Positions 29,288 through 42,216 are shown, counted from the stretch's first letter. The stretch is DNA of 64,000 nucleotides from Methanobacteriota archaeon (GCA_028355015.1 JAOMRN010000001.1:1229-65228), one strand, 5' to 3'. Numbers and translations: made by a program. The notes: generated from the sequence alone by a model not told the origin.

Positions 29288-29391
29288 CCGCGCTTAGCTC
29301 AGTTGGCTAGAGCACCTGACTGTAGACTGGAAACACATGGTTGTAGGCAGCCATCAGGGGGTCCCCGGTTCAAGTCCGGGAGCGCGGACCA
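29288..29391 (+). tRNA. tRNA-Tyr (anticodon GTA) with a 27-nt intron at the canonical 37/38 position; CCA encoded
   Basis: Hand-folded cloverleaf. Acceptor CCGCGCT/AGCGCGG (C1-G72, A73, as required of archaeal tRNA-Tyr). D arm GCTC-AGTTGGCTA-GAGC. Anticodon stem CCTGA/TCAGG with loop CTGTAG|A interrupted by 29326..29352. Variable loop GGGTC. T arm CCCGG-TTCAAGT-CCGGG. The mature length would be 77 nt including CCA. Confidence 0.85.
29366..29391 (+). repeat. 26-nt direct repeat, copy 1 (3' end of tRNA-Tyr; att-like)
   Basis: CGGTTCAAGTCCGGGAGCGCGGACCA is identical to 33565..33590. Confidence 0.9.
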
Positions 29392-29413
29392 TAATATCAT
29401 CAGATTAGGTAAC

Positions 29414-30535
29414 TTAAGATGTAATTTGCACCACACATTTACCTTTAGCACGACCAGAAAAAGAGCGATTGAACGCTCCTTGCCATCCTTCTTCGGTATC
29501 TTCTGAATTGAAGTTCCAAATACCGTCGAGCACCGGCTTAATTTCTCCACTTTCTAGATACCCTGCAAGTGTCGAGAGATCTTCATGACTTGGTGAAAGG
29601 AAAAGATACTCCCAGTTTGCACCCACAGACCTAGCAGATTTGAACTCCTTCCTCTTTTCTTTCCTCTTCAAGAAAAGCTTGAGTATCCAAGCAGTCCCAC
29701 CTATCCGACGTATTTCTTCAAGGGTTGGCATACCCGCAATGGTAACGATTTTTCCTCCCTCTTTGACAATCTTAGACATCTCATGACTTTCGGCTGTTGT
29801 ATCGAAACACACATCAAATTTTTCATCATTGCTCCCTCCATACACTTCATCGAATCGAGTGTTTTTGTAATTAATTACTACATCTGCTCCGAGACTTTTA
29901 CACAGATTTTCTTTCTCTCCCTTTGATGCGGTAGTGACAACAAGACCTGCTTTAAACACGTTCTTTGCTAATTGAATAGCAATTGTACCAACTCCTCCGG
30001 CTCCACCTGATATGAAGATTCGGTCACCTTCTTTGAGTCCAGAAGATTTGAGGGCCTGGAGCGCAGTCATACCAACGAGAGGAATCGATGCGGCTTCCTC
30101 AAATGTTAGATTATCAGGCTTCATCACAACATTGGCTGTATCTGCAACACAGTACTCTGCCATTGCACCTCTATACCATGGTGTTTTCTTTCCATCATTT
30201 TCGTTTCCAAAAAGACGAGCAAATACAGGTTGACCAACAGAGAATTTTCCTTCAAGGTCTGCTTCTTCAACAACTCCTGCAATATCGTAACAAATGATAT
30301 GAGGGAAGGATGCAACGGGTCGAACCATCTTCAAATCGCCCGATAGTAGTGCTTTGTCAACTGGATTGATGGAAGATGCGTGAACTTTGATTACGATATT
30401 GTTTGAGGCATCAAAACCATGAGGGTAAGCCACACTTGTTTTTTTCAATTGGGAAGGTTTACCATATTTTGAGAAACCGATTATGTTCATTGTTTTGCCA
30501 CTTGGATGTGCATTCATAATCACGGGAACGTACAT
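29414..30535 (-). CDS. Zinc-type alcohol dehydrogenase-like / quinone oxidoreductase (MDR superfamily)
   Basis: Nucleotide-binding GDRIFISGGAGGVGTIAIQLAK, with an overall GroES-like plus Rossmann layout. The real start may be the internal MNIIGF. Confidence 0.8.
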   Translation of the reverse strand: MYVPVIMNAHPSGKTMNIIGFSKYGKPSQLKKTSVAYPHGFDASNNIVIKVHASSINPVDKALLSGDLKMVRPVASFPHIICYDIAGVVEEADLEGKFSVGQPVFARLFGNENDGKKTPWYRGAMAEYCVADTANVVMKPDNLTFEEAASIPLVGMTALQALKSSGLKEGDRIFISGGAGGVGTIAIQLAKNVFKAGLVVTTASKGEKENLCKSLGADVVINYKNTRFDEVYGGSNDEKFDVCFDTTAESHEMSKIVKEGGKIVTIAGMPTLEEIRRIGGTAWILKLFLKRKEKRKEFKSARSVGANWEYLFLSPSHEDLSTLAGYLESGEIKPVLDGIWNFNSEDTEEGWQGAFNRSFSGRAKGKCVVQITS

Positions 30536-30606
30536 CTGTAAATAAATAAAAAAGTGTCAATAGTGTCCTTTTGTAACAATGTTGTAACCTGTATCCTAAT
30601 AACAAA

Positions 30607-30984
30607 ATGATACTTAGCCACCTTATGTCTCAGATACAATCACAGCGTATGCAATCAATGTGTGAATCAGCTCGAAGTCATGTTGACGACCTATTGGTTT
30701 TACTATCAAAATCGAAAATGCTCAGCATTCTTTACGTAATGAATTGTGATCCCTCTCCAATGCGTTTCTCTGAAATCAAGAAGAGAGTTGACTCATCCTC
30801 AACAACAGTTGCAAGACGATTGGCAGAACTTGAAGACAATGGGCTAGTCACCCGTACTGCCTATGCAACCGTCCCAGCTACAGTCGAATATGCACTAACC
30901 GAAGATGCGATTTCACTTCAGCCCAGTCTTGAATCGATGTTTGAATGGGTGCTCAATCGAGCAGATAATTTTGCCGAAAAATAA
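30607..30984 (+). CDS. HxlR-family winged-helix transcriptional regulator
   Basis: LLSKSKMLSILYVM...MRFSEIKKRVDSSSTTVARRLAELEDNGLVTRTAYATVPATVEYALTE is the typical HxlR wHTH. It is divergent from an oxidoreductase gene, the usual HxlR context. Confidence 0.8.
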   Translation: MILSHLMSQIQSQRMQSMCESARSHVDDLLVLLSKSKMLSILYVMNCDPSPMRFSEIKKRVDSSSTTVARRLAELEDNGLVTRTAYATVPATVEYALTEDAISLQPSLESMFEWVLNRADNFAEK

Positions 30985-31146
30985 ACACATACCACGAAAC
31001 TAGTTATTTCCATGAAATTGTAATATTTTTCTAGAATGTGTCTTTATGATAAAATTTTGATGGTTACGGGCATGTTACTAGGACAGTAACGAGTCTGTTA
31101 CTATCAAAACGGTTCTTTATATGTAGTAAGTAGATGGAATTAGTAT

Positions 31147-33432
31147 ATGTCTCGGTTGAGAGTACTATTAATCTGCTTAATGATGATGGCCATTCCTGCA
31201 TCCCAGGTATCTGCTGATGTTGATGAAACGAATTCAAGTCCAGAGGTAACTATTGGGTTTGGCAATGTTACCAATGACACCATGGTATTCACCATGGATA
31301 CCTCTGTAGATGTGTATGTATACCAAGTAACATTGGCTTGGGAGAATGGTGCTGTTTATTGTGGCATCTCAGCATCCGGTGGACTCTCTGAAGAATATAA
31401 CTTGTATGTCAGCGTCCTTTATGCTGGGTGTTTGACAACAGGATACTATTATGGCGCTCAGGGAGGTGCCTGGATCCCCTCAGGTAGTAATGATACTCTC
31501 ACATCTATTTTGTATCAATCCAACAGCCCTGAGGTATGCATCGGGAATGCGACCTATACAGTCATGTTACCCGATGGGGAGTTCGAAACTCGACAAGCAG
31601 ACTTTGATCCCAATGATTGTCTGAGTTATACTATGTATGAAAGAGAATGGCCGTATGATCTATGGTATGTACTTGATGAAGACGGCAATGATGAAGGCGA
31701 CAATGAATCTGAGGCAGAGGAAATTATTGATGACAGTCTTTATCAGTTCAATGAAGATTTGACTGTATTAGAAAATTTGGAAAGTTTTGATGATTTTTCC
31801 ACTCTCATAGAGGCACTCAACATAACAGGATTAACTGATAATTTCAGTTCAAATAATACACCTCAGATGGGGTGGTCAATCTTTGCCCCCACTAATGATG
31901 CTTTTGCTTCTGCAGGCATAGATTTAGATGATTTTGATAGTTCAGAAGAAATAGAATTTTTGACTGAAATCTTACTCTATCATGTTACTTTCGCAGGACC
32001 ATATGCTATGAACTCAAGTATGGCCTACAACAGCTCGAGCGGCGAGTATGAGCCATACTGCCAGCCTTACACTGCTGACTGGATGCCGATGCTAAATGGA
32101 GAATATGCTGATCCATTCGATTACAGCTCTTGGACTGAGACTGTAACAATTTCGAATGACTGCCAGGGAAATCTTACAGTCAACCAGGCCTATATCATTG
32201 ATGCAGATAATCGAGTCTATGGTTATGAATACAACGGGGTCGATGGCTACCCTTTCAACAATCAACTTCCACATGGCTGGGAAATTGCTGAGGATAATGG
32301 GATGATTCAGGTAATCGATCAAGTTCTATTTCCGGCAAGCTTCAATTCTACACCACCGAATAATGATCAGCCAAGATTCAATCCTAGATTTGATATTCCG
32401 TCCAACCTAGAGAATGATGGAGAGTTTGGAGACTTAATGGATGCATTGGGAATGACTATGTTGATGGACGACATTACTATCGAGAATAGCCCTCAGATGG
32501 GAATGACGATATTCGCTCCAACAGATGAGGCATTTGCTGCGGCTGGAATTAATCTTGACGATTATGATAGTCTCCAGAAACTCGAAGGTTTGTCTGAAAT
32601 CCTTCTTAATCATATCTCATTTGACTGGGTATTATCATTCCCTGATGAATGTACGCCCACAGAGTTTGACATGGAAACTACAGATTCATTTTCGGTAACC
32701 ATTTCAAATGATTGTGAAGGTAATATCTTCGTCAATGAAGCAAAAGTTCTCTATTCCCAAGGAGTAGAAAATGGGGTTATTATCGTCATCGATCAAATAC
32801 TGATGCCGATAGAAGAAGAACCTGTAGAGGAGCCTGTCGAAGAACCTGTAGAGGAGCCTGTCGAAGAACCTGTAGAGGAGCCTGTCGAAGAACCAGTAGA
32901 GGAGCCTGTGGAAGAACCAGTAGATACAACCATAGAAACTCCAGTCGATGATATTCCTTTGCAGGATGATGATTCCAAAGTTGATGGCAGCGGACCTTCA
33001 GTTATTTTAGGTCAAAGCAGTACATTCTTTGGAGCGATGATATTGTTCACCATGGTATTGGTTCTAGTCGGTACAGCTGCGGTAAGATCTCCCAAGTCAC
33101 GATTAGATTCCGTAATAATGGAAAATGAAGTTGAAGCAGATGAATTATTGTCACTTCTTTCTAGATCAAAAATGGTTCAAATTATTCATGCATTGCATTC
33201 AGAAGAAAATCCAATTAGATTTACAGAATTAAAAAATAGAGTTGATACCTCCTCTACCACACTAACAAGAAGATTGGGCGAATTAGAGGACCATAATTTA
33301 GTAGAAAGAATTGATTATGAGACCGTTCCTCCCACTGTTGTGTATAAATTGACTGATTCCGGAACATCTCTTCTTCCTAGTTTAGAGACATTTTTTGAAT
33401 GGGTTCTAAATGATACAAATGAAACTGAGTAA
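31147..33432 (+). CDS. Membrane-spanning fusion: signal peptide, two fasciclin (FAS1) domains, (EEPV)9 linker, TM helix, cytoplasmic HxlR-type wHTH
   Basis: Signal MSRLRVLLICLMMMAIPASQVSA. FAS1 blocks WSIFAPTNDAFASAG...LLYHV...GMIQVIDQVLFP and MTIFAPTDEAFAAAG...LLNHI...GVIIVIDQILMP. TM FFGAMILFTMVLVLVGTAAV followed by basic RSPKSR. The C-terminal 110 aa are colinear with the stand-alone HxlR at 30607..30984. Confidence 0.8.
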   Translation: MSRLRVLLICLMMMAIPASQVSADVDETNSSPEVTIGFGNVTNDTMVFTMDTSVDVYVYQVTLAWENGAVYCGISASGGLSEEYNLYVSVLYAGCLTTGYYYGAQGGAWIPSGSNDTLTSILYQSNSPEVCIGNATYTVMLPDGEFETRQADFDPNDCLSYTMYEREWPYDLWYVLDEDGNDEGDNESEAEEIIDDSLYQFNEDLTVLENLESFDDFSTLIEALNITGLTDNFSSNNTPQMGWSIFAPTNDAFASAGIDLDDFDSSEEIEFLTEILLYHVTFAGPYAMNSSMAYNSSSGEYEPYCQPYTADWMPMLNGEYADPFDYSSWTETVTISNDCQGNLTVNQAYIIDADNRVYGYEYNGVDGYPFNNQLPHGWEIAEDNGMIQVIDQVLFPASFNSTPPNNDQPRFNPRFDIPSNLENDGEFGDLMDALGMTMLMDDITIENSPQMGMTIFAPTDEAFAAAGINLDDYDSLQKLEGLSEILLNHISFDWVLSFPDECTPTEFDMETTDSFSVTISNDCEGNIFVNEAKVLYSQGVENGVIIVIDQILMPIEEEPVEEPVEEPVEEPVEEPVEEPVEEPVEEPVEEPVDTTIETPVDDIPLQDDDSKVDGSGPSVILGQSSTFFGAMILFTMVLVLVGTAAVRSPKSRLDSVIMENEVEADELLSLLSRSKMVQIIHALHSEENPIRFTELKNRVDTSSTTLTRRLGELEDHNLVERIDYETVPPTVVYKLTDSGTSLLPSLETFFEWVLNDTNETE
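32815..32922 (+). repeat. In-frame tandem repeat, 9 x 12 nt (24-nt super-period), encoding (EEPV)9
   Basis: gaRgaRccWgtN repeats nine times, alternating cctgtagaggag/cctgtcgaagaa. It lies inside the 761-aa ORF, just outside the TM helix. Confidence 0.95.
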
Positions 33433-33564
33433 TGTCATTGTTTCACCCCTGAAAGCAGAGTTAGTAACTGCTTTACAGTACCATTTTTACCTTCACGAAT
33501 ATCCTCCAGGCACTGTCGCGACAACTCCCTCAGGAGCACGAACGCCTCATCCGATACCGGACTT

Positions 33565-33590
33565 CGGTTCAAGTCCGGGAGCGCGGACCA
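33565..33590 (+). repeat. 26-nt direct repeat, copy 2 (orphan tRNA-Tyr 3'-end fragment; att-like)
   Basis: Identical to 29366..29391. The upstream sequence does not supply a matching 5' acceptor strand, so this is a fragment and not a second tRNA. Confidence 0.9.
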
Positions 33591-33872
33591 AAAAATATAA
33601 ACTAAGAAAATTAAATTTCAAAATTGTGCGAGAAGATACAAGTATATTTAAATCAAAAATACAAAAGTAAACAGGCATTCATTAATGAATCATTACGACG
33701 TATAATAATGCACGCAGGACACATACTAACAATACTAATTGGCTCCTACGCATCTTTCGCTATTACAGTGATGAGTGTTACGCCATTATTAGGTTGAACA
33801 GCTAAAACTCAGTAATTCCCATCTTACCTCGAGGAATGACTTCAATAGCCTTCGATTACACAGTATAACTTC

Positions 33873-34058
33873 ATGACCGAAAACACGTGTGAGCATGAGT
33901 GGGATAAGAGCGAAGATATAGATCAATTTCTTGACCTGGTAGACTTGAACCCGCAGTTTGTACAAATCAAAGTTAGGTGCTGCAAGTGCGGGAAAACGGG
34001 ATTGACTGACGCTGATACGACTTGGAAGCCAGTATATTGGGATTTTATTGACCCATGA
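33873..34058 (+). CDS. Hypothetical small Cys-rich (zinc-ribbon-like) protein
   Basis: 61 aa with CEHEW ... CCKCG; located in the island. Confidence 0.4.
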   Translation: MTENTCEHEWDKSEDIDQFLDLVDLNPQFVQIKVRCCKCGKTGLTDADTTWKPVYWDFIDP

Positions 34059-34120
34059 GACCGTACAAATGCGAAAGGATTAACAATAATTATTTATATG
34101 AACATACAGAGATGAATTAG

Positions 34121-34489
34121 ATGAATGAAGATTTACAAAAAGAATTGATTTGGGCATTTGGTACATTAGTCGTTTTCATCATCTTTTTATTATTAGGAGG
34201 CATAAATGAAGTCAGTGGAATAGCAATTTCAGTAGGTGCTTTTCTATTAAGTTGGTCTGTAATGAGTTTTTCCCTCAAGAAATACGCCCCTAATAATGAC
34301 TCAGGGAAAGAACTAGAAAACGAAATGAAATGGTTTGCTGCTATCTTGATATTATTTCTTACTATAATGACTATCATCGGGAAAACTGATAGTGAGTTAG
34401 AATTATCATATTCATTATACGCCATTTTAGTATTTGGCTATACTTTGATTTGGATTATTCGCAGTTCTGCTATCAAATATTTCAATTAA
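34121..34489 (+). CDS. Hypothetical four-helix membrane protein
   Basis: 122 aa with four clear hydrophobic segments. It is more protein-like than the overlapping minus-strand ORF 34117..34425. Confidence 0.5.
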   Translation: MNEDLQKELIWAFGTLVVFIIFLLLGGINEVSGIAISVGAFLLSWSVMSFSLKKYAPNNDSGKELENEMKWFAAILILFLTIMTIIGKTDSELELSYSLYAILVFGYTLIWIIRSSAIKYFN

Positions 34490-34502
34490 TTATTGGAGCA
34501 AT

Positions 34503-34606
34503 GGGTAGGCATTGAAAGGGCCCATAGATAGCCGATAAGTTCACTCAAAACATATCAATGGGCTCAAGTAGAAACCCATTGATTCGTCTGTTAATCGATT
34601 ATGCTA
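34503..34606. repeat. Island intergenic repeat, copy R1 (104 nt)
   Basis: It aligns without gaps to 35627..35730, with 73 of 104 identical by hand count. Shared blocks are TGAAAGGGCCCA and the perfect palindrome TAATCGATTA (34592..34601). It also contains the hairpin CAATGGG-n12-CCCATTG. Confidence 0.75.
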
Positions 34607-34651
34607 AGCACAGTTTTTCGAATTTGCGGTTAGATACAATGTTAGTAAAAA

Positions 34652-35542
34652 TCATTTTTCGAACCACCAATCTCCTTCATTATTAGATGGGTAGTTACTG
34701 GGTAAGTTTTTCCAACTCTTATATCCGACTAGGTATACTTTCATTTCCGTCTCCACTCTGGTTATCCCACTCTCATCAAAGACCATACCATATATTGTTG
34801 AGGATTTCATATGACCAGTTTTTCCAAAGGTGCTCTCAGGATTTGCCCTAGCATATTCTCTTGCTTGATGTTCCTTAATTCCTTTATCGAGACAATAATT
34901 GACATAGATTTCTAATCGTTCTGCTTCATCAATATAACTAATATAACCATGCAAACGCCCATCTACGATTTCAGCTTGAAAAATATTTTCAACAGGCTTC
35001 TTATCTATTTTGATGTGGTTATATTTTGGGTCAATAGACATTATTTTCTGATTATAGGAAATAATATGCTCAATCTCGAATAATTCAGGTAAAATCGATT
35101 TCAATGATTCTTTCCAATTCGGAGTGAATCTTTTCATGAAGTTTGGATATGAATCATAATCACCAATTTCATAATCAACCGTTTTAATTATTGTTTGATT
35201 ATTTTCCTTTATTTCCATCAATCTGTAGCTATTACCATCAGGATTTACAGGTTTATATGTCGTATAGAATAAATCACTAATTGGTATTTTTCTATATTTA
35301 ATATTGATTTTTTTCGTGAATTCTTGTCCAAAAATTATGTGATCTGAGGAATCAATTCGAATTATATATTTTCTATGGAATAAGAATAGACTCATTGGGA
35401 AAGCCCCTAAGAAAATAGCAATAACAATACCAAATGTTAAATCATCAGGAATTACGTATAGTCCGATGAATATGAAGAAACCAAAAACAATAGGTAAACC
35501 CTGATAATCGAATACTGGGAATATGATTTTCTTCTCCTCCAT
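34652..35542 (-). CDS. Hypothetical protein, two N-terminal TM helices plus a soluble domain of about 230 aa
   Basis: 296-aa ORF. TM helices LPIVFGFFIFIGLYVI and FGIVIAIFLGAFPMSLFLF. No recognisable motifs. Repeats R1 and R2 flank it. Confidence 0.6.
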   Translation of the reverse strand: MEEKKIIFPVFDYQGLPIVFGFFIFIGLYVIPDDLTFGIVIAIFLGAFPMSLFLFHRKYIIRIDSSDHIIFGQEFTKKINIKYRKIPISDLFYTTYKPVNPDGNSYRLMEIKENNQTIIKTVDYEIGDYDSYPNFMKRFTPNWKESLKSILPELFEIEHIISYNQKIMSIDPKYNHIKIDKKPVENIFQAEIVDGRLHGYISYIDEAERLEIYVNYCLDKGIKEHQAREYARANPESTFGKTGHMKSSTIYGMVFDESGITRVETEMKVYLVGYKSWKNLPSNYPSNNEGDWWFEK

Positions 35543-35626
35543 ATTACTACCTAAACTTTCGACATATGATAGACCTTTAGGTCTGTTCCCCGATAATTAG
35601 AGGAGGGATACCGCCTAACATCGGAT

Positions 35627-35730
35627 GGTTAGGCTCTGAAAGGGCCCACTGAAAGCCCAATAATTCGCCGATTGCAATCGGATGGGTCTAAGCAGAAACC
35701 CTCAGATTTGTCTATTAATCGATTATACTA
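35627..35730. repeat. Island intergenic repeat, copy R2 (104 nt)
   Basis: Homologous to R1. It contains TAATCGATTA at 35716..35725 and the palindrome CCGATTGCAATCGG. The hairpin GCCTAAC-n8-GTTAGGC (35613..35634) overlaps its 5' end. Confidence 0.75.
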
Positions 35731-35780
35731 TGCTCTGATTCTCTAATTGAACGCCAGCCTATGAAAGAGAATACAGATTA

Positions 35781-35825
35781 CCTAATAATTCTTCAATTAC
35801 TATCGGATGGGGCTAAGTAGTAACC
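35781..35825. repeat. Island intergenic repeat, partial copy R3 (45 nt)
   Basis: cctaataattcttcaattactatcggatggggctaagtagtaacc aligns to the middle of R2 (cccaataattcgccgattgcaatcggatgggtctaagcagaaacc) at about 80% identity. Confidence 0.65.
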
Positions 35826-35949
35826 GTATAATTACTAACAACAAATACCTTATTTTAGCGGACCATAATTTTACAACGTTACTACTATTTTAATCTATTT
35901 GAGCACTGAGCCCAAAACTATATGCCGCTTGAAAACTAAGTATATAGTT

Positions 35950-37089
35950 ATGAGTGAGTTGAAAAATCGCGATAAAGAAAAACAAGAAAATGAAACTGTA
36001 TCAGTCTGGTTTAGAGCACAGAATGCTTTGAAAAATGAAGGTAATTTTAGCCGGATTCCGGGAACTCCTTCATATTCTGAATCTAGAAATAAAATATATG
36101 GAAGAAGAAGTGCGAGAACAATATTTAACAATCTTAGAACTGATAAAAAACTTTACAGGAATCATATTTTATCATATAGTGTCCATGGTCGAGAACATGA
36201 TTTATTGAGTGAGAGTGCAATAAATGACGAAGTTGATTCACGAACTGATATCCTTTTTCTTAGAATGAGGACTCCTGGACTTGATGAAATCTGCTGGAAC
36301 TGGAGTCAGGAGCTGCTATCGCATAGAGATTATCTACGATCAGCCGGTATTGATTTACCAATCGAAAATGATAATAGGAAAATCACACAAATTGAAATGA
36401 TTATAAGAAGTGGTTACTTACATAAAATATGGCATAATTCATTGTATGCTATGAGTGAACTAGGAATGGAAATTCCAAACTGGTGTAAAATTCTTCCTTA
36501 CAATCCATTAGTAAATGCATTTCATGGCACAAACCGAGATGATCAAGACATAGGTGAAAGATTATTATCAATTTTAGAAGAAAAATATCCAGAGTTACAT
36601 GCTGAATTAATCGCATCAAATCCGTTCCGTTCACCAAGAATTGGTTTTCAAAATGGGAAAGGAAATGTAGGGGGAACTAAGTGGCCCTCTATTTCTGATA
36701 TTATTTCAAGATTAGAATCAGGAGAATCTGTCGATCAGGATTGGGAAAATAAATTTCTAGAAGAACTGATTTATGATTATGATGAAGAAGAAGATGACTT
36801 CCCATATGAAAGCACAGAGGATCTTTATCGTTCATTGAAAGTCACTAACCTGAGAAGATGGGCAGATGCTGATGAGATAACTGGTGCTTGGTCTATGAAT
36901 CGTGAGAAATTAATTTCGGCTTGGGCTACTAGAACTGAAAAGATGGAGAGTGCTTATAGAAGACAAGGGGGGGCATACCCTAGAGTACCAAGGCTAACCG
37001 ATTGGACTATTTTTATTATGGAGAATGTAAATTTTTTCAAATTAGATGATGAGTTAATTTTAAGCCCGAAGATGCAAAGGAGTGAATAA
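35950..37089 (+). CDS. Hypothetical protein (about 379 aa from the first ATG; the ORF opens at TTG 35899)
   Basis: Long ORF in the island with an acidic patch YDYDEEEDDFPYE. No Walker, HUH or nuclease motif recognised. Its stop overlaps the next gene. Confidence 0.6.
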   Translation: MSELKNRDKEKQENETVSVWFRAQNALKNEGNFSRIPGTPSYSESRNKIYGRRSARTIFNNLRTDKKLYRNHILSYSVHGREHDLLSESAINDEVDSRTDILFLRMRTPGLDEICWNWSQELLSHRDYLRSAGIDLPIENDNRKITQIEMIIRSGYLHKIWHNSLYAMSELGMEIPNWCKILPYNPLVNAFHGTNRDDQDIGERLLSILEEKYPELHAELIASNPFRSPRIGFQNGKGNVGGTKWPSISDIISRLESGESVDQDWENKFLEELIYDYDEEEDDFPYESTEDLYRSLKVTNLRRWADADEITGAWSMNREKLISAWATRTEKMESAYRRQGGAYPRVPRLTDWTIFIMENVNFFKLDDELILSPKMQRSE

Positions 37090-37090
37090 T

Positions 37091-37591
37091 ATGAAATGTG
37101 ACGATTGCAAAGTAGATTTAATCTCAACAGATATGATTGCGGAAACTACCACTTACTATGAAGGCTACTTACGCTCAAGATTGCTTATACCTAATGAACT
37201 ACTTAATGAGGAGTTAAAAGAGTTAGGAAAACTAGAAGCAGAACTAATTTGGTCTGAATATAATAGCTCTCGGAGTAGATATATGGAGCATTTGGATGGA
37301 GGGTCATGGGATGGACGACCTGAATACCTCGATTTGATAAATCAAATCAAAGATATACATGTAGACATTATTGCTAAGGTATGCCCTAAATGCGGCAAAG
37401 TAAAGATCGTAGCCGATTTAATGAGTAGGAAAAAAATATTCACTAGTTTGGAAAAAATGGTAAAAACCCTCGTAATGAAACGTAAAAAATTAAACAAAGC
37501 CGAAGAGTTCGAAAAGAAGGAAAAAGCAAAAAAAGATAGGGAAATTGCTAAACTAAAAAAACAGATTGAGAAATTGGGCGGTGACTCATAG
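37091..37591 (+). CDS. Hypothetical split zinc-ribbon protein with Lys-rich coiled-coil tail
   Basis: CDDC at the N-terminus and CPKCG about 95 aa later. C-terminal tail KRKKLNKAEEFEKKEKAKKDREIAKLKKQIEKL. GGAG-like motif upstream of ATG 37091; GTG 37082 is an alternative start. Likely translationally coupled to the upstream gene. Confidence 0.55.
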   Translation: MKCDDCKVDLISTDMIAETTTYYEGYLRSRLLIPNELLNEELKELGKLEAELIWSEYNSSRSRYMEHLDGGSWDGRPEYLDLINQIKDIHVDIIAKVCPKCGKVKIVADLMSRKKIFTSLEKMVKTLVMKRKKLNKAEEFEKKEKAKKDREIAKLKKQIEKLGGDS

Positions 37592-37641
37592 GCCGGCGTT
37601 CCTTTCAACCAATCGCATGGGCACCCCATCCATCCGTATAC

Positions 37642-37654
37642 GAAGCAAAGGGTA
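37642..37654. repeat. Left arm of a 13-bp inverted repeat flanking the R-M/recombinase cassette
   Basis: GAAGCAAAGGGTA here; its reverse complement TACCCTTTGCTTC is at 40906..40918. Both lie in intergenic DNA rich in ACCCTA/TAGGGT motifs. Confidence 0.6.
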
Positions 37655-37681
37655 CCCTATGGTATGATATGCACCATAGGG
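37655..37681. repeat. Perfect hairpin / palindromic site (9-bp stem, 9-nt loop)
   Basis: CCCTATGGT-atgatatgc-ACCATAGGG lies immediately after the left IR arm, 64 nt downstream of the 37591 stop. It may be a terminator or a recombinase site. Confidence 0.8.
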
Positions 37682-37727
37682 GTATCATAGGGATAACCAT
37701 AAGTATCAATAGCAAGACCATATATTT

Positions 37728-38519
37728 GTGGAACTTGAACAAATTATGAATCGTCTTGCAGAGCAGGTAGCAATCGTAGACAGAAATATTACACCTACTC
37801 AAAACTATTATATTCCTTCAATAGGAACTTCTAGTGAGCCTACAATTGTACATAGACTAGTAGAAGAATGGGTAAAAAAACATCCTGATGAGTTACCAGG
37901 TATTATGCTAAATAAAAGAGGAAAGGGAACAGAAGGTTGTTTTGAAATAAAATATCCAGGTGCCAAAGGTTCTGAAAAGAAATTGGATTTTGGTTTTTCA
38001 AGTTCAACAGGACATGAAAATTCTGATAATTTAGATAACTTAGAATGGGCAATCGAATTTAAAAAAATCAATTGGATTGGTGGGACAGGAACTGACCAAT
38101 CAGAAAGAGCAGTAGGTAAACTATGCTCTCCTTATCCGGCTACAGGACCAATCTTATCCGATGCCTTAAGGGTCATAAAACATAGTCATGGAACACGTCA
38201 TGCAGTGATTTTAATAAGTCCAGATGTCCATTCTGATCAATTAGAATTATGTAAAAATCATCCAGATAGAGAACGTAGATGGAAACCTGAAAATCCAAAT
38301 GATAGAATTATAGCACTAACTAATTCTTTCAAGAAAAATAATGGTTATGCATTTGAAGCAGAACCTCTGTTACCATTTGTTGAGAAAATATTTGAGTATA
38401 AGGAAATTAACTTCAATGAACGTATTATTAAGAAAATTACTGGATTAACAAACCACCCCGTTTATTCAAGATTGACACTTGTTGGTTGGGAAATTAAAAA
38501 AGAATCTATAGCAGATTGA
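37728..38519 (+). CDS. Putative type II restriction endonuclease (PD-(D/E)xK-like)
   Basis: Candidate catalytic pattern KKLDFGF ... (23 aa) ... LEWAIEFKK (D ... E-x-K). It is convergent with, and overlaps by 58 nt, a C5-cytosine methyltransferase gene. Start is GTG 37728 or ATG 37746. Confidence 0.55.
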   Translation: MELEQIMNRLAEQVAIVDRNITPTQNYYIPSIGTSSEPTIVHRLVEEWVKKHPDELPGIMLNKRGKGTEGCFEIKYPGAKGSEKKLDFGFSSSTGHENSDNLDNLEWAIEFKKINWIGGTGTDQSERAVGKLCSPYPATGPILSDALRVIKHSHGTRHAVILISPDVHSDQLELCKNHPDRERRWKPENPNDRIIALTNSFKKNNGYAFEAEPLLPFVEKIFEYKEINFNERIIKKITGLTNHPVYSRLTLVGWEIKKESIAD

Positions 38520-39841
38520 ATTTCAATAATCATGTTTACATTAACTGCATTACCAAGTTGTTTGTATGATTGATTATCTTGTTCACCTAGAATAAACGGC
38601 TTTCCAAAAATACCATCTACATCGAAACTCTGTATTCTAGCACACTCTTTGGGTGTTAAGTGCCGCCTTAACCATCCTACAACGGGTATTTGTGCCATGG
38701 CCACTAGTGCTGGAAAATAGTCACCTCTTTTAACACGAATTCCAGAAGGTCTGAACTGGAAAATATTTTCCCAATTAGTTCGACTATCTGGGCCCGCTTG
38801 CCACTCATATTTTGTTCGACTAACAGGAATTATTGGCTTACCATCTTTATCATTTTCAAGAACTTTCCAGCGTTTTAACCAGCCATCAATGTAGTCCTTA
38901 TTCTCTGAGTATAGATACCTATTTTTCTTTACAAAATCTTGTTTCCAAAGTGGTAAATTAATTTGTTTTATAATCTCTGTTTTATCCATTCCAGATTCGA
39001 TAGGTCTAACCCAGCCATAAGAAGACCAATTTTTGTGTATTTGAATTAATTGTTCTACACTGTATTGCTCTAAATCACCAGGTATCTCGGCATCACCTTT
39101 GAATGAATCTGCCCATATCGGATGACCTGGTAATTTTGTTTCAACATTTACATTAATAAGAAATTCTTCCCACATTTCTAACCATTTAATTTCCTTTTCC
39201 GACATATGGTATTTTTCAGGAACATGGTCGTCTAATATTGTCCTAACATCTAATGAGTTAGTCTCATGTTCCTTTGGAAACACAAATTTACCACTCACTA
39301 GATCAGAACGTATTGCCACAATATACACTCTTTTTCTAACCTGAGGGACTCCAAATTTATTCGGTGAAAGTACAGCATATTCATGATTATATCCTAATTC
39401 AGAAAGTCTCGATTGAATTACAGAAAATGTATTGCCTCCATCATGTTTTACTAGATTAGGTACGTTTTCTAGAAATATAACTGAAGGTTGATGCTTTTCT
39501 GCAATACTACAAATATCGTGGAATAGAGTGCCTCTAGTTTGATCCATAAATCCTTTCTGTGATCCTGACTTGCTAAATGGCTGACAAGGAAATCCTGCAC
39601 ATATTATGTCCATCGGAGGTATCTCATCTATCACTTCCCTTATGTCACAATTAACAGAGTAACCCTGTGGTTGACCCCAATTCAATTCATATACCTCTGC
39701 AGCATTTTTATCAATATCAGATGCAAAAACACATTCATGTCCTAAACGATGTAGAGCTGCATGAAACCCTCCTATGCCACAGAACAAATCTACGAATCGC
39801 ATATCATCACCAGGAAATACACGGTTAATAAGGAAATGCAA
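38462..39841 (-). CDS. DNA (cytosine-5)-methyltransferase
   Basis: Motif I DLFCGIGGF, motif IV GFPCQPFS, motif VI FLENVPNL, motif X QLGNAVNVN, and a long variable target-recognition region. The likely true start is MRFVDLF at 39802. Confidence 0.9.
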   Translation of the reverse strand: MHFLINRVFPGDDMRFVDLFCGIGGFHAALHRLGHECVFASDIDKNAAEVYELNWGQPQGYSVNCDIREVIDEIPPMDIICAGFPCQPFSKSGSQKGFMDQTRGTLFHDICSIAEKHQPSVIFLENVPNLVKHDGGNTFSVIQSRLSELGYNHEYAVLSPNKFGVPQVRKRVYIVAIRSDLVSGKFVFPKEHETNSLDVRTILDDHVPEKYHMSEKEIKWLEMWEEFLINVNVETKLPGHPIWADSFKGDAEIPGDLEQYSVEQLIQIHKNWSSYGWVRPIESGMDKTEIIKQINLPLWKQDFVKKNRYLYSENKDYIDGWLKRWKVLENDKDGKPIIPVSRTKYEWQAGPDSRTNWENIFQFRPSGIRVKRGDYFPALVAMAQIPVVGWLRRHLTPKECARIQSFDVDGIFGKPFILGEQDNQSYKQLGNAVNVNMIIEIQSAIDSFLISQPTSVNLE

Positions 39842-39842
39842 T

Positions 39843-40742
39843 CTATTTCTTGAGTACTAAATCATCTTTAGTCCAAACCTTCGGTTTTTTTGATTTCTCT
39901 ATCTTCTTATTCTTCTTTCTCTTGATTCTGTGCCAAACTTTGTCACCCCACCATTCAGGTATGTCAAATTGATTTCTATTTGTGTGAAATTTATTTTTGA
40001 TAGTTCTTAGAACGCCTTGGCTTCTCCACTGCCCTCCTAATTTACCTTTTATTTCTCTTTTATTTAGTGATCTTGCTACACTAGTTGCAGTTACTTCATT
40101 ATGCACGACTTGCCAAGCCATGTAGTCAATCCATGATTGTTCAGTCCAATTAGGAAATAGGTCTCCGTTCTTATCAAAGTCCCATCCATAAATCGCTCTA
40201 GTAAAGCGAAGTTGTTCTCTTTTCAGATATGCCATACCTTCTAATGTCCTCTCAGAAATTAAACCTCTTTCCATCTCTGCTAAACCTGACATTATTGTCA
40301 AAAAGAACTTCCCCATAGCGTTACTTGTGTCTATTGCCTGACCGCCTAAATCAACAATGTGGACTTTGATATGATGGTCTTCATTAAGATATTCAATGGT
40401 ATTAATGGCATCACTAGTAATTCTAAATAACCTATCTAATTTCATAGAAATAAGATGTTCAAATTTTCCACTTTCAATTCTTTTTAGCAATAGTTTACCT
40501 GCTGGCCTCTCAAAAAGAGGAATACCTCCACTAACGCCTTCTTCAATTATAATATTCCTAGAAAGTAATTCTAATCCTTTCATACGAGCATAATCCATTA
40601 TTTTTTGCTGTTGACTATCAATACTATTTCCTTCATCGACTTGCCTTCCTGTAGATACACGAATGTATGCTACAGTGGAAATTGCATCTGGCTTAGACTT
40701 AGGCACAATTAAGAATATCACATTACAATAGATATAAATCAT
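39843..40742 (-). CDS. Serine recombinase (resolvase catalytic domain plus truncated recombinase domain)
   Basis: Catalytic VAYIRVSTGRQVDEGNSIDSQ, LDRLFR and SGLAEMERGLISERT motifs. The C-terminal LNKREIKGKLGGQWRSQGVLRTIKN resembles the large-serine-recombinase recombinase domain, but no Zn-ribbon/coiled-coil is present. Its stop lies directly upstream of the MTase ORF (1 nt between them). Confidence 0.8.
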   Translation of the reverse strand: MIYIYCNVIFLIVPKSKPDAISTVAYIRVSTGRQVDEGNSIDSQQQKIMDYARMKGLELLSRNIIIEEGVSGGIPLFERPAGKLLLKRIESGKFEHLISMKLDRLFRITSDAINTIEYLNEDHHIKVHIVDLGGQAIDTSNAMGKFFLTIMSGLAEMERGLISERTLEGMAYLKREQLRFTRAIYGWDFDKNGDLFPNWTEQSWIDYMAWQVVHNEVTATSVARSLNKREIKGKLGGQWRSQGVLRTIKNKFHTNRNQFDIPEWWGDKVWHRIKRKKNKKIEKSKKPKVWTKDDLVLKK

Positions 40743-40905
40743 TCTAATCTAAAATTATAGCGCCCCCCTATATTATTCAAGTGAATCATTGGGATGTACT
40801 AGCACACCCAATCATTCTACATGGAAACTAATGGGCGCCTTCAGTAAACCCTACCCTGCATATTTGGAGCATAGATACCGTTGCACTGCAATACAGCGTA
40901 TTCCC

Positions 40906-40918
40906 TACCCTTTGCTTC
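40906..40918. repeat. Right arm of the 13-bp inverted repeat flanking the R-M/recombinase cassette
   Basis: TACCCTTTGCTTC is the reverse complement of 37642..37654. The neighbouring direct 9-mers CCCTACCCT sit at 40849..40857 and 40903..40911, and ATCATAGGG is shared with the left side. Confidence 0.6.
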
Positions 40919-40977
40919 AAGTTGAATCATAGGGTTATCGAAGGAGTCGTTTAATCTCTACTCAATGATCCATACAA

Positions 40978-41364
40978 TTATTTATCATGATTTTTAAAAA
41001 CCAAAAGTTTCCATGCCATGAATAACAATACGCCCAATACTACCACTGGTCCTCCATAAATAATCAGCAACAAACCAGCCAATCCGTTCAATTCATACCC
41101 ACCGCTTAGAGGAAACATAAGTAAAATTCCTAAGAATACAATTAGTCCGCCCACTATTAGCAATGATATTCCAATCACTTTCAACATAGAAATACGAGGG
41201 AGATCTTGATAAATTACAAGTGACTCATTAACTAGGGTGGAAGAGATCTTTTTTATTTCATGATTAGGGTCTTTGTGCCTGAGGCAAAATCCAGACGTCC
41301 TAAACTCTAGGGCCTTGCATCCTTCGTAAGCACACTTCCTTTCGCCCACATAATTAACAGTCAA
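40978..41364 (-). CDS. Hypothetical protein: N-terminal Cys/His zinc-finger-like motif plus three TM helices
   Basis: CAYEGCKALEFRTSGFCLRHKD followed by hydrophobic segments. It is the last ORF of the island. Confidence 0.5.
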   Translation of the reverse strand: MTVNYVGERKCAYEGCKALEFRTSGFCLRHKDPNHEIKKISSTLVNESLVIYQDLPRISMLKVIGISLLIVGGLIVFLGILLMFPLSGGYELNGLAGLLLIIYGGPVVVLGVLLFMAWKLLVFKNHDK

Positions 41365-41414
41365 TTATTAGGGATAGACTTTGCTACGCCACAAACTAGT
41401 AAAGGAGTCACAGG

Positions 41415-41510
41415 GTAGTGTATCAGTTAACAGACTCTGGTGCGGATCTTCTTCCTAGTTTAGAATCATTTTTTGAATGGGTAATTAATGATACAAATCA
41501 AACTCAATGA
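41415..41510 (+). pseudogene. Displaced relic of the 3' end of an HxlR-type gene (31 codons plus stop)
   Basis: It translates to VVYQLTDSGADLLPSLESFFEWVINDTNQTQ*, versus VVYKLTDSGTSLLPSLETFFEWVLNDTNETE* at 33337..33432 (24/31 aa and about 75/96 nt identical by hand alignment). An in-frame TAA lies 4 codons upstream and similarity is lost beyond it. Confidence 0.75.
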
Positions 41511-41631
41511 ATGCATTTTTAAACAATGGAATTGGTTGATTTGAAAGATTTTGATATATTTTCATGTTCAAGGTCTTGGATATAGACTCATAAAGGGATG
41601 TCAAGTCGGCGACTCGCTACGAGGGATGAAT

Positions 41632-42216
41632 ATGGGAGTTACAAAGTACGTACGTTCGGCTTGGAAGAGTCCAAAGCAAAGCATGGAACCTCGTCATAGA
41701 ACTGGTAGAATGGCTGTATGGCGCCACGAACCAGTGTTTCAGAGAATCGATAAACCTACTCGTATTGATGCGGCTCGTCGTGTTGGATACCGTGCAAAGC
41801 AAGGTGTAGTAATCTGCAGAACACGTGTTCGCCGTGGTGGACTACGTAAGGGTGTAGTAAACATGAAGCGTAAACCTTCAAAGTCAGGTGTAACAAAAAT
41901 TACTATGGCTAAGTCAATTCAAAGAATTGCAGAAGAGCGTGTTTCTCGTAGATACCCGAATCTTAGGGTTCTAAACTCATATTGGGTTGGAGAAGATGGA
42001 AAGAACAAATTTTTCGAAGTTATTCTATTAGATCCTAATCATCCAGTTGTTAAAGCTGATAGTCAATGGTCTTGGGTTGCAGATAATCATCACAAGGGAC
42101 GAGCTATGCGTGGTATGACAAGTGCTGGAAAGCGTGGTCGTGGTTTGTACAACAAAGGTAAGGGTGCAGAGAAACTTCGCCCAAGCTTGAAGGCTAACAA
42201 AAACCGTGGTAAATAA
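41632..42216 (+). CDS. rpl15e: 50S ribosomal protein L15e
   Basis: MGVTKYVRSAWKSPKQS..., with RVRRGG and a basic C-terminus typical of L15e. The ORF-track start at 41551 is an upstream non-ATG codon, so ATG 41632 is preferred. Confidence 0.9.
   Translation: MGVTKYVRSAWKSPKQSMEPRHRTGRMAVWRHEPVFQRIDKPTRIDAARRVGYRAKQGVVICRTRVRRGGLRKGVVNMKRKPSKSGVTKITMAKSIQRIAEERVSRRYPNLRVLNSYWVGEDGKNKFFEVILLDPNHPVVKADSQWSWVADNHHKGRAMRGMTSAGKRGRGLYNKGKGAEKLRPSLKANKNRGK

Follow-up and report, generated by a model that had tools for sequence, protein, structure and literature searches.

Among the systems that the locus described here resembles, the elements ICESt1 and ICESt3 of Streptococcus thermophilus reportedly form tandem arrays together with non-autonomous cis-mobilisable elements (CIMEs) flanked by attachment (att) sites, and they are said to spread by accretion-mobilisation. 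In integration of the SSV1 type, the att site lies inside the integrase gene, and remnants of such 'gene capture' are found in Sulfolobus and Thermococcales chromosomes. Marine picoplankton also carry tRNA-linked islands, such as the Prochlorococcus islands with repeated tRNA 3′ ends and the additive flexible genomic islands. To our knowledge, little is known about gene exchange in Marine Group II, which is abundant and uncultured, beyond the magroviruses and the recently proposed Charybdis elements. The latter are small (~4.6 kb), are reported to insert beside tRNA genes of Marine Group II with the help of an integrase, and carry methyltransferases as accessory genes (bioRxiv 10.1101/2025.08.03.668216). 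Here, we analysed a 64,000-nucleotide stretch of DNA (the window) from a Methanobacteriota archaeon (GCA_028355015.1, JAOMRN010000001.1:1229-65228; positions are counted from its first letter). The 12.2-kb interval that separates its tRNA-Tyr gene from rpl15e is probably an array that grew by one integration after another at the tRNA-Tyr 3′ end and was later trimmed by deletions.

The window belongs to a metagenome-assembled genome (MAG) of 1.5 Mb in 19 contigs that is 84% complete (G000). From its closest relatives, the host was judged to be a member of Candidatus Poseidoniales (Marine Group II), family Thalassarchaeaceae. In what follows, G-codes denote relatives' genomes and L-codes fetched loci or metagenome contigs; G013 is the single-cell genome AG-319-P11. 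An original prediction, made from the sequence of the window, had described two interleaved repeat pairs in the interval, A/A′ and B/B′, had read both as insertion scars, and had proposed either an 8-kb element with a composite att region or repeated insertion and deletion at one hotspot. We recovered all four copies in the order A < B < A′ < B′, with the announced spacing of 132 nt from the stop codon of an HxlR-type gene (33432) to A′ (33565).

Empty and occupied sites between tRNA-Tyr and rpl15e

The left flank of the interval is a tRNA-Tyr(GTA) gene on the plus strand (29288-29391; Rfam RF00005, 56.4 bits), whose neighbour is FtsZ in all relatives. It was retrieved by ARAGORN with the -i option and missed with default settings because of its 27-nt intron. 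The right-hand core flank is rpl15e (41632-42216, plus strand; Pfam Ribosomal_L15e, 6e-73), which is present in 36 of the 41 relatives searched.

Three MAGs of the same genus (G001, G008, and G017) carry these two genes at a distance of 102-180 nt, as do five metagenome contigs (L049, L053, L054, L058, and L069). Three other contigs that start inside the tRNA (L050, L059, and L061) likewise show an empty site upstream of rpl15e, bringing the empty sites to three same-genus MAGs and at least eight metagenome contigs. The gap measures 343-685 nt in other genera of the family and, over the 44 loci where both genes were found, is at most 800 nt in 33 and 0.8-13 kb in 11. As the tRNA-Tyr of these relatives lies 100-800 nt from rpl15e, all 12.2 kb between the two genes in the window is inserted DNA. 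The homology of every relative to the window ends at 29402, a few bases past the tRNA.

The right-hand junctions of occupied sites fell into six or more types, which differed even where the flanks of the contigs were 98-99% identical, and each contig that matched the window at 98-99% on its rpl15e side had a content of its own. Of the 20 contigs fetched from relatives, 12 stop no further than ~6.5 kb upstream of rpl15e. Such breaks are to be expected where co-assembled strains differ at a locus, and the hotspot is a likely reason why MAGs of this genus break there. The original prediction had called the interval an accessory region and a flexible hotspot, and this description stands: we found empty sites and varying content between nearly identical flanks in place of a single conserved configuration. 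Its proposal of repeated insertion and deletion at one hotspot was essentially right.

The repeat pair A/A′ and an integrase-bearing element family

Copy A (29366-29391, plus strand) covers the T-loop, the 3′ T-stem, the 3′ acceptor strand, and the CCA of tRNA-Tyr, and matches copy A′ (33565-33590, plus strand) at 26 of 26 positions. These are the only two copies of the 26-nt core in the 1.5-Mb genome, even with up to 4 mismatches allowed, where our arithmetic gives ~5e-7 exact 26-mer pairs expected by chance in 64 kb. The core was invariant across 13 aligned copies from eight genomes. With the tRNA left intact and its 3′ end directly repeated on the far side of the unit, A and A′ are a true att pair. 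The tRNA-Tyr gene is the integration target (attB) and carries attL in the present array, and A′, a displaced tRNA 3′ end, is the attR core of the unit between the two copies, which we call cassette Y.

The single-cell genome G013 carries, directly beside tRNA-Tyr, a tyrosine recombinase of 445 aa (Pfam Phage_integrase), and homologues 80-83% identical to it adjoin tRNA-Tyr beside FtsZ in four further Poseidoniales genomes. The element that bears this integrase, X, was also seen in L120-L123 and G009. Contig L120 holds it complete, as 5.1 kb in the order tRNA-int...o265-arm-core-rpl15e (int being the integrase gene), and the same order is divided over two contigs in G009. The int open reading frame (ORF) reads through the core, which is translated as WSALPDLNR or VRAPGLEP; among the 45 integrase homologues collected, some run into antisense tRNA, corresponding to the integrated state, and others into the arm. 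Two metagenome contigs (L133 and L134) contain the attP-type junction int-core-arm-o265, which could stem from a circle or from a tandem.

The Pfam catalytic domain of the integrase spans aa 195-349, and the presumed catalytic tyrosine motif TTKYYF (placed by eye at ~aa 352) lies upstream of the core, which is reached at aa 416. Integration would exchange only the C-terminal tail of the enzyme, and a splitting into non-functional halves of the SSV1 type is not predicted. The best match to a solved structure was XerA (4a8e, E = 0.003), and the X integrase is only distantly related to characterised integrases. No close relatives were found when a viral contig collection was scanned with the integrase, o265, and o667.

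The 132 nt that precede A′ (33433-33564, minus strand) form the right-end arm of the cassette, which is the attP arm of the X family. Positions 33499-33596 are 96% identical to the X right end of G013, and in 15 or more loci an att copy is preceded by a related arm. On the minus strand, the int frame passes from the core into the arm, reading WSALPDLNR-SPVSDEAFVLLRELSRQCLEDIREGKNGTVKQLLTLLSGVKQ before a stop codon, and these 51 codons are uninterrupted in five diverged copies. In other integrases, a different frame is used across the core, or a stop codon follows after 10 codons. The arm carried by the cassette in the window's own genome is a mosaic of two arm types.

An integrase-less cassette found in more than one species

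Cassette Y (29392-33564, plus strand) is a 4.2-kb, att-bounded unit, delimited by its identity to L062 and L057 and annotated with Pfam and NCBIfam. It encodes a PIG3-type quinone oxidoreductase/alcohol dehydrogenase (ADH; 29414-30535, minus strand), a soluble HxlR regulator paralogue (30607-30984, plus strand), and a fasciclin-HxlR fusion (31147-33432, plus strand; Pfam Fasciclin and HxlR). Positions 29366-33596 of the window are 97% identical to L062:5610-9882 and L057:336-4608, exactly core-to-core, where the FtsZ/tRNA flank of L062 is 78% identical to the window and the rpl15e sides of L062 and L057 are 75-76% identical. Judged by this step in identity, the cassette has demonstrably crossed a species boundary as a unit. 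It occupies the second position in both contigs (tRNA-2.6-kb element-core-cassette-core-rpl15e). The left junction, in which the core is followed by TAATATCATCAG and the ADH stop codon lies 23 nt further, recurs in L044, L057, L062, and L065, and the ~12 nt after the core in Y resemble the 3′ end of int.

We found no tyrosine integrase between A and A′, nor any X-family tyrosine integrase in the 84%-complete genome G000. Cassette Y, which has kept both att ends and the arm, appears to be non-autonomous. Since neither Y nor G000 provided an integrase, the cassette would need one in trans, or co-excision with a neighbouring X. Such neighbours exist, as G013 reads tRNA-X-core-Y-type-core and L065 reads X right end-core-Y. 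A second copy of Y is also present within the species, downstream of the segment called Z below: L044, whose flank is 99% identical to the window, has the order Z-left...core-ADH-HxlR-stub-rpl15e, with its ADH-HxlR part 93% identical to that of the window. A circular Y would join arm and core to TAATATCATCAGATTAGG, and its excision would join tRNA-Tyr to AAAAATATAAACTAAG.

The fasciclin-HxlR gene itself is highly variable. Its alleles differ by up to 21% in nucleotide sequence between contigs with 98-99% identical flanks and encode proteins of 761 or 934 aa, the N-terminal, presumably extracellular half being the most divergent (L047, L043, and L010). In G005 (L009, 703-3457), a further 2.9-kb unit with a 368-aa and a 473-aa ORF without known function lies between two att copies and looks like another type of integrase-less cassette at the same site.

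Segment Z, the repeat pair B/B′, and the gene-end stubs

Segment Z begins to the right of A′. Its conserved left end (Z-left; 33591-34056, plus strand) carries a promoter and two small ORFs, the gene of a 29-aa hydrophobic peptide (MHAGHILTILIGSYASFAITVMSVTPLLG; 33708-33797, plus strand), which belongs to a multicopy family in the genus, and a 61-aa ORF (33873-34058, plus strand). The junction of A′ with AAAAATATAAAC is common to G000, G013, and G005/L041, and the arrays differ only to its left, as accretion at the tRNA predicts. Positions 33629-34056 are 98% identical to L044:1-428. The cargo that follows the first 232-466 nt of Z-left amounts to 7.6 kb in G000, 774 nt in G013, and ~2.6 kb in G005. 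The peptide gene has a strongly conserved upstream region of ~110 nt and is present in up to three copies per genome (74-94% nucleotide identity); one copy in G001 lies just downstream of a different tRNA.

Copy B (33330-33442, plus strand) is an ordinary part of a gene: it forms the 3′ end of the fasciclin-HxlR gene that cassette Y carries. The window and the L062 cassette are 96-100% identical on both sides of 33330, and in the absence of any identity break at this position, B is the end of the cassette's own gene and not a junction. Copy B′ (41408-41520) is 75-79% identical to B without gaps and keeps the frame and the stop codon. The match has E = 7e-16 (BLAST, whole genome). Chance accounts for neither of the two pairs. 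The B motif occurs a third time, in a weaker form (30916-30957), within the soluble HxlR paralogue.

The origin of B′ is indicated by a conspecific contig with a 99% identical flank, L047, which has an intact fasciclin-HxlR gene directly upstream of rpl15e. Positions 41417-41571 of the window are 100% identical to the end of that gene (L047, 4299-4453), an allele that is only ~79% identical to the window's fasciclin-HxlR gene. Intact fasciclin-HxlR genes also adjoin rpl15e in L042, L043, and L064-L066. From this identity, B′ (41417-41510, plus strand; ~31 codons and the stop codon, in frame) is the 3′ stub of an older fasciclin-HxlR allele and not an insertion scar, which leaves A/A′ as the only att pair of the two that had been read as scars.

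Similar stubs are found at other loci and vary in length (~180 nt in L039, 94 nt in the window, ~91 nt in G013, 54 nt in L071, 47 nt in L068 and G004, and 43 nt in L044), and the breakpoint of L056 is inside the intergenic region. No shared motif was seen left of the stubs in their alignment. This pattern would fit deletions or replacements that occurred repeatedly and were bounded on the right by the rpl15e promoter. In G013, a 35-nt stub of another gene's 3′ end (L010 797-831, reverse; ...NGNTCEYNL and stop codon) lies between the cargo gene and the fasciclin-HxlR stub, and gene-end stubs are therefore stacked upstream of rpl15e. The intact form of this end belongs to paralogous genes of G000 (C4:15713-15754 and C8:4289-4326).

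The stubs could also be explained as att-like remnants of a second site-specific system that targets the 3′ end of fasciclin-HxlR. Several independent stubs at this end, a serine recombinase 670 nt away, and the boundaries of the G000 and G013 stubs, which fall within 3-5 nt of each other (at the position GTAGTG/TATCAG) next to unrelated DNA on the left, are in line with such a system. We nevertheless consider it unlikely, as stub lengths range from ~180 to 43 nt with one breakpoint intergenic and no common left motif, and no matching repeat was found at the other end of any insert. The module to which the serine recombinase belongs ends at 40746-40960, not at the stub, and is found elsewhere in unrelated contexts, and the DNA abutting the G013 stub is itself a gene-end stub, which fits erosion by deletion.

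The intergenic region that separates B′ from rpl15e (41511-41631, plus strand) contains the rpl15e promoter and leader. In alignments, it starts with what we call the 'B-type' junction sequence and continues from ~41572 with a stretch conserved in all genomes. One sequence beside rpl15e, GTTCAAGGTCTTGG, was considered as a third att copy and rejected: it resembles the core weakly and is a part of the rpl15e leader that all genomes conserve.

A probable history of the array and its alternatives

Serial integration at the tRNA-Tyr 3′ end with later trimming by deletions would have proceeded as follows. The attP of the X family combines the ~130-nt arm with the 26-nt core, which reproduces the end of tRNA-Tyr on the 3′ side, and with the 3′ end of int. 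Each integration would restore the tRNA and push the earlier occupants, headed by the displaced core, toward rpl15e. In the oldest state, a fasciclin-HxlR gene would have stood directly upstream of rpl15e. Segment Z, led by the 29-aa peptide gene, would then have integrated at the tRNA and gained cargo, including a mobile module, and a deletion or replacement would have removed the right end of Z and the old fasciclin-HxlR gene except for its last ~94 nt (B′). In the youngest step, the insertion of cassette Y at the tRNA would have given rise to A′; an integrase in trans may have moved Y, or Y may have been excised together with a neighbouring X (accretion-mobilisation). The interleaved appearance of the repeats arises because A/A′ is an att pair and because two fasciclin-HxlR genes, one succeeding the other, contribute the homologous 3′ ends B and B′.

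Several observations weigh against this history. The right end of segment Z has no att copy. The 'B-type' junction consists of the fasciclin-HxlR stop codon, ~17 nt shared with the Y context, ~40 unique nt, and the rpl15e promoter, also without an att copy; the oldest segment may therefore have arrived by a route other than the tRNA site. The near coincidence of the G000 and G013 stub boundaries, 3-5 nt apart with unrelated DNA to their left, is not predicted by simple independent deletions. Depending on the element, int runs through the core in one of two frames, and the open 51-codon tail in the arm may be non-coding. Finally, the window comes from a MAG, and this contig may contain a strain switch inside the 466-nt Z-left repeat.

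Another account would have content exchanged mainly by homologous recombination in the flanks or in internal repeats, with site-specific integration being only historical. It could explain the divergence of the fasciclin-HxlR alleles between nearly identical flanks, the fusion in L044 of a point ~65 nt past the HxlR1 stop codon to a fasciclin-HxlR stub, the mosaic arm of G000, the 97% identity of the gene o162 across islands, and the dispersed repeats common to islands. However, a cassette that is 97% identical core-to-core between flanks of 76-78% identity cannot be the product of flank-guided exchange, and att copies separate the units in every array. As the main route of exchange, homologous recombination thus seems improbable to us, although it and site-specific integration are not mutually exclusive.

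An assembly chimera, joining two strain variants via a shared repeat, would be a very unlikely source of the interleaved order. The source is a 19-contig MAG, the assembly breaks no more than a few kb from rpl15e in the majority of the genus's MAGs, and the 466-nt Z-left is 98% identical between variants, all of which would have favoured such a join. Yet the single-cell genome G013 has the same order on one contig (A in the tRNA, followed by B, A′, and B′), which argues that the order is not an assembly artefact. In addition, a metagenome contig (L041) spans tRNA-cassette-A′-Z-left...rpl15e, and the 26-nt core would be too short, and B/B′ with 75% identity too divergent, to mislead an assembler.

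Hardly credible, finally, is the single 8,078-bp element (33330-41408) inserted in the fasciclin-HxlR 3′ end, bringing B as a replacement gene end together with A′, a tRNA-Tyr end captured at a previous site, and leaving the original gene end as B′, since the B-B′ spacing of 8,078 nt, the low G+C (0.32-0.36), the recombinase gene inside the interval, and the nature of B′ as a real gene-end relic are outweighed by the absence of a break at 33330, where B is continuous with its gene and the ADH-HxlR part (L062), by the recurrence of B, arm, and A′ with the 4.2-kb cassette but without the 8 kb (L057, L062, L071, and G013), by G013 sharing A′ plus 232 nt and B′ with 774 unrelated nt between them, by the recombinase lying in a 3.1-kb module with boundaries of its own and nine other contexts, and by B′ stubs that occur without the 8 kb, the unit 33330-41408 being seen nowhere else. 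The 8 kb is a mosaic rather than one element, and this part of the original prediction has to be given up.

Serial integration with later trimming also invites a broader and more tentative view. The tRNA-Tyr site of Thalassarchaeaceae could serve as a shared cassette platform, on which integrase-less cassettes that retain just the 26-nt core and the ~130-nt arm are excised, passed between species, and re-integrated by the integrases of resident X elements, and on which a dispersed, promoter-like repeat of ~100 nt aids the movement of single genes between this island and others; we regard this as possible, though rather doubtful. If true, the platform would be an archaeal counterpart of accretion-mobilisation in uncultured, globally abundant plankton.

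Cargo of the 8-kb segment

The region from 34 to 41 kb has a low G+C (0.32-0.36). Its first part (34057-37609) is specific to G000 and is made of orphan genes (34121-34489, 35899-37089, and 37082-37591 on the plus strand; 34652-35542 on the minus strand) and dispersed intergenic repeats of ~100-130 nt (34497-34630 and 35621-35760). A further orphan ORF of 128 aa (40978-41364, minus strand) lies between the restriction-modification (R-M) module described below and the relic B′. The orphan genes of the 8-kb segment had no match in Pfam, NCBIfam, or PHROG.

The dispersed repeats recur in islands of G000 on contigs C4, C7, and C15 (C15:56.8-83.7 kb), sit at many contig ends in the genus, and are confined to island-like regions and short contigs. 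They carry the palindrome TTAATCGATTA, and ~11 of 16 are followed, 40-100 nt downstream, by a gene of like orientation. From this placement, the repeat looks like a shared promoter or leader of island genes, and it is a likely substrate for recombination between islands. The single cargo gene of the 774 nt in G013, o162, is 97% identical to a gene of another island in G000 (C15:58503-59012).

The right part of the segment is occupied by a module of ~3.1-3.2 kb (37610-40746, minus strand; Pfam, NCBIfam, and PHROGs). It encodes a putative restriction enzyme or nuclease of 263 aa (37728-38519, plus strand), a C5 cytosine methyltransferase (38462-39841, minus strand), and a serine recombinase of 299 aa (39843-40742, minus strand). 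The module is 87% identical in seven contigs and clipped by the contig end in two more, in differing flanks, and is thus a separately mobile R-M unit. Module-related end sequence reaches ~40960, and positions 40906-40960 repeat, in inverted orientation, the sequence that flanks the module on its left in L126. A search for terminal inverted repeats of at least 14 nt around the module found none; a 13-nt inverted match was seen by eye in the alignment, but the repeat search did not report it. The left end starts with clustered (A)CCCTAT/ATAGGG motifs, and the gene convergent to those of the methylase and the recombinase encodes 263 or 271 aa across the module copies.

The serine recombinase matches the resolvase domain with 1e-30 and the recombinase domain with only 3e-4, and it aligns with only the first half of CcrB, XisF, and phrog_95. 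It was not retained as a large serine recombinase (at least 450 aa, with a zinc-ribbon/coiled-coil C-terminal part behind the resolvase and recombinase domains), being 299 aa long and lacking the C-terminal half. Its family is large, with members of 261-292 aa that are mostly found on contigs of 1-3 kb. Elsewhere in G000 (C15:61781-66889), type I R-M-like genes (481, 392, and 770 aa) are followed by a 52-aa fragment with 44% identity to the C-terminal part of the serine recombinase in the window, which points to another case in which R-M genes accompany this recombinase family.

Comparison with known systems

The locus supplies an integration system with its tRNA-Tyr target, 26-nt core, arm, and integrase family. 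Its cargo is the equipment expected at strain level: a quinone-reductase/HxlR redox module, a mobile R-M unit, and a membrane-tethered fasciclin-HxlR regulator with very divergent alleles. The host is poorly known, and because the mechanism is conventional, the value of the locus is descriptive rather than conceptual.

Compared with the Charybdis elements, element X is larger (5-8 kb versus ~4.6 kb), and no sequence link between the two was found in the viral contig collection with the integrase, o265, and o667.

Like the arrays of ICESt1 and ICESt3, the locus consists of tandem units at one tRNA-type target with a copy of the att core between units. The relation of X to Y recalls that of an integrative element to its CIMEs, with X carrying the integrase, Y lacking one while retaining the arm and the two att ends, and X and Y lying side by side in G013 and L065; the horizontal spread of the integrase-less unit Y is a further likeness. 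Unlike ICESt1 and ICESt3, the host is an archaeon, and no conjugation module was seen at this locus.

With integration of the SSV1 type, the locus shares the tRNA 3′ target, a core inside the int ORF, and integrase-less remnants flanked by tRNA repeats in the chromosome. In contrast, the core of X lies in the last 10-50 codons of int, after the catalytic tyrosine, such that the enzyme would not be split.

The locus is also similar to the tRNA-linked islands of picoplankton in being hypervariable, in its position beside a tRNA with partial tRNA repeats, and in breaking metagenome assemblies, as well as in surface, regulatory, and defence cargo that differs between co-occurring strains. It differs from them in belonging to another domain of life, and in that we could identify the integrase family with its attP arm and trace one cassette between species.

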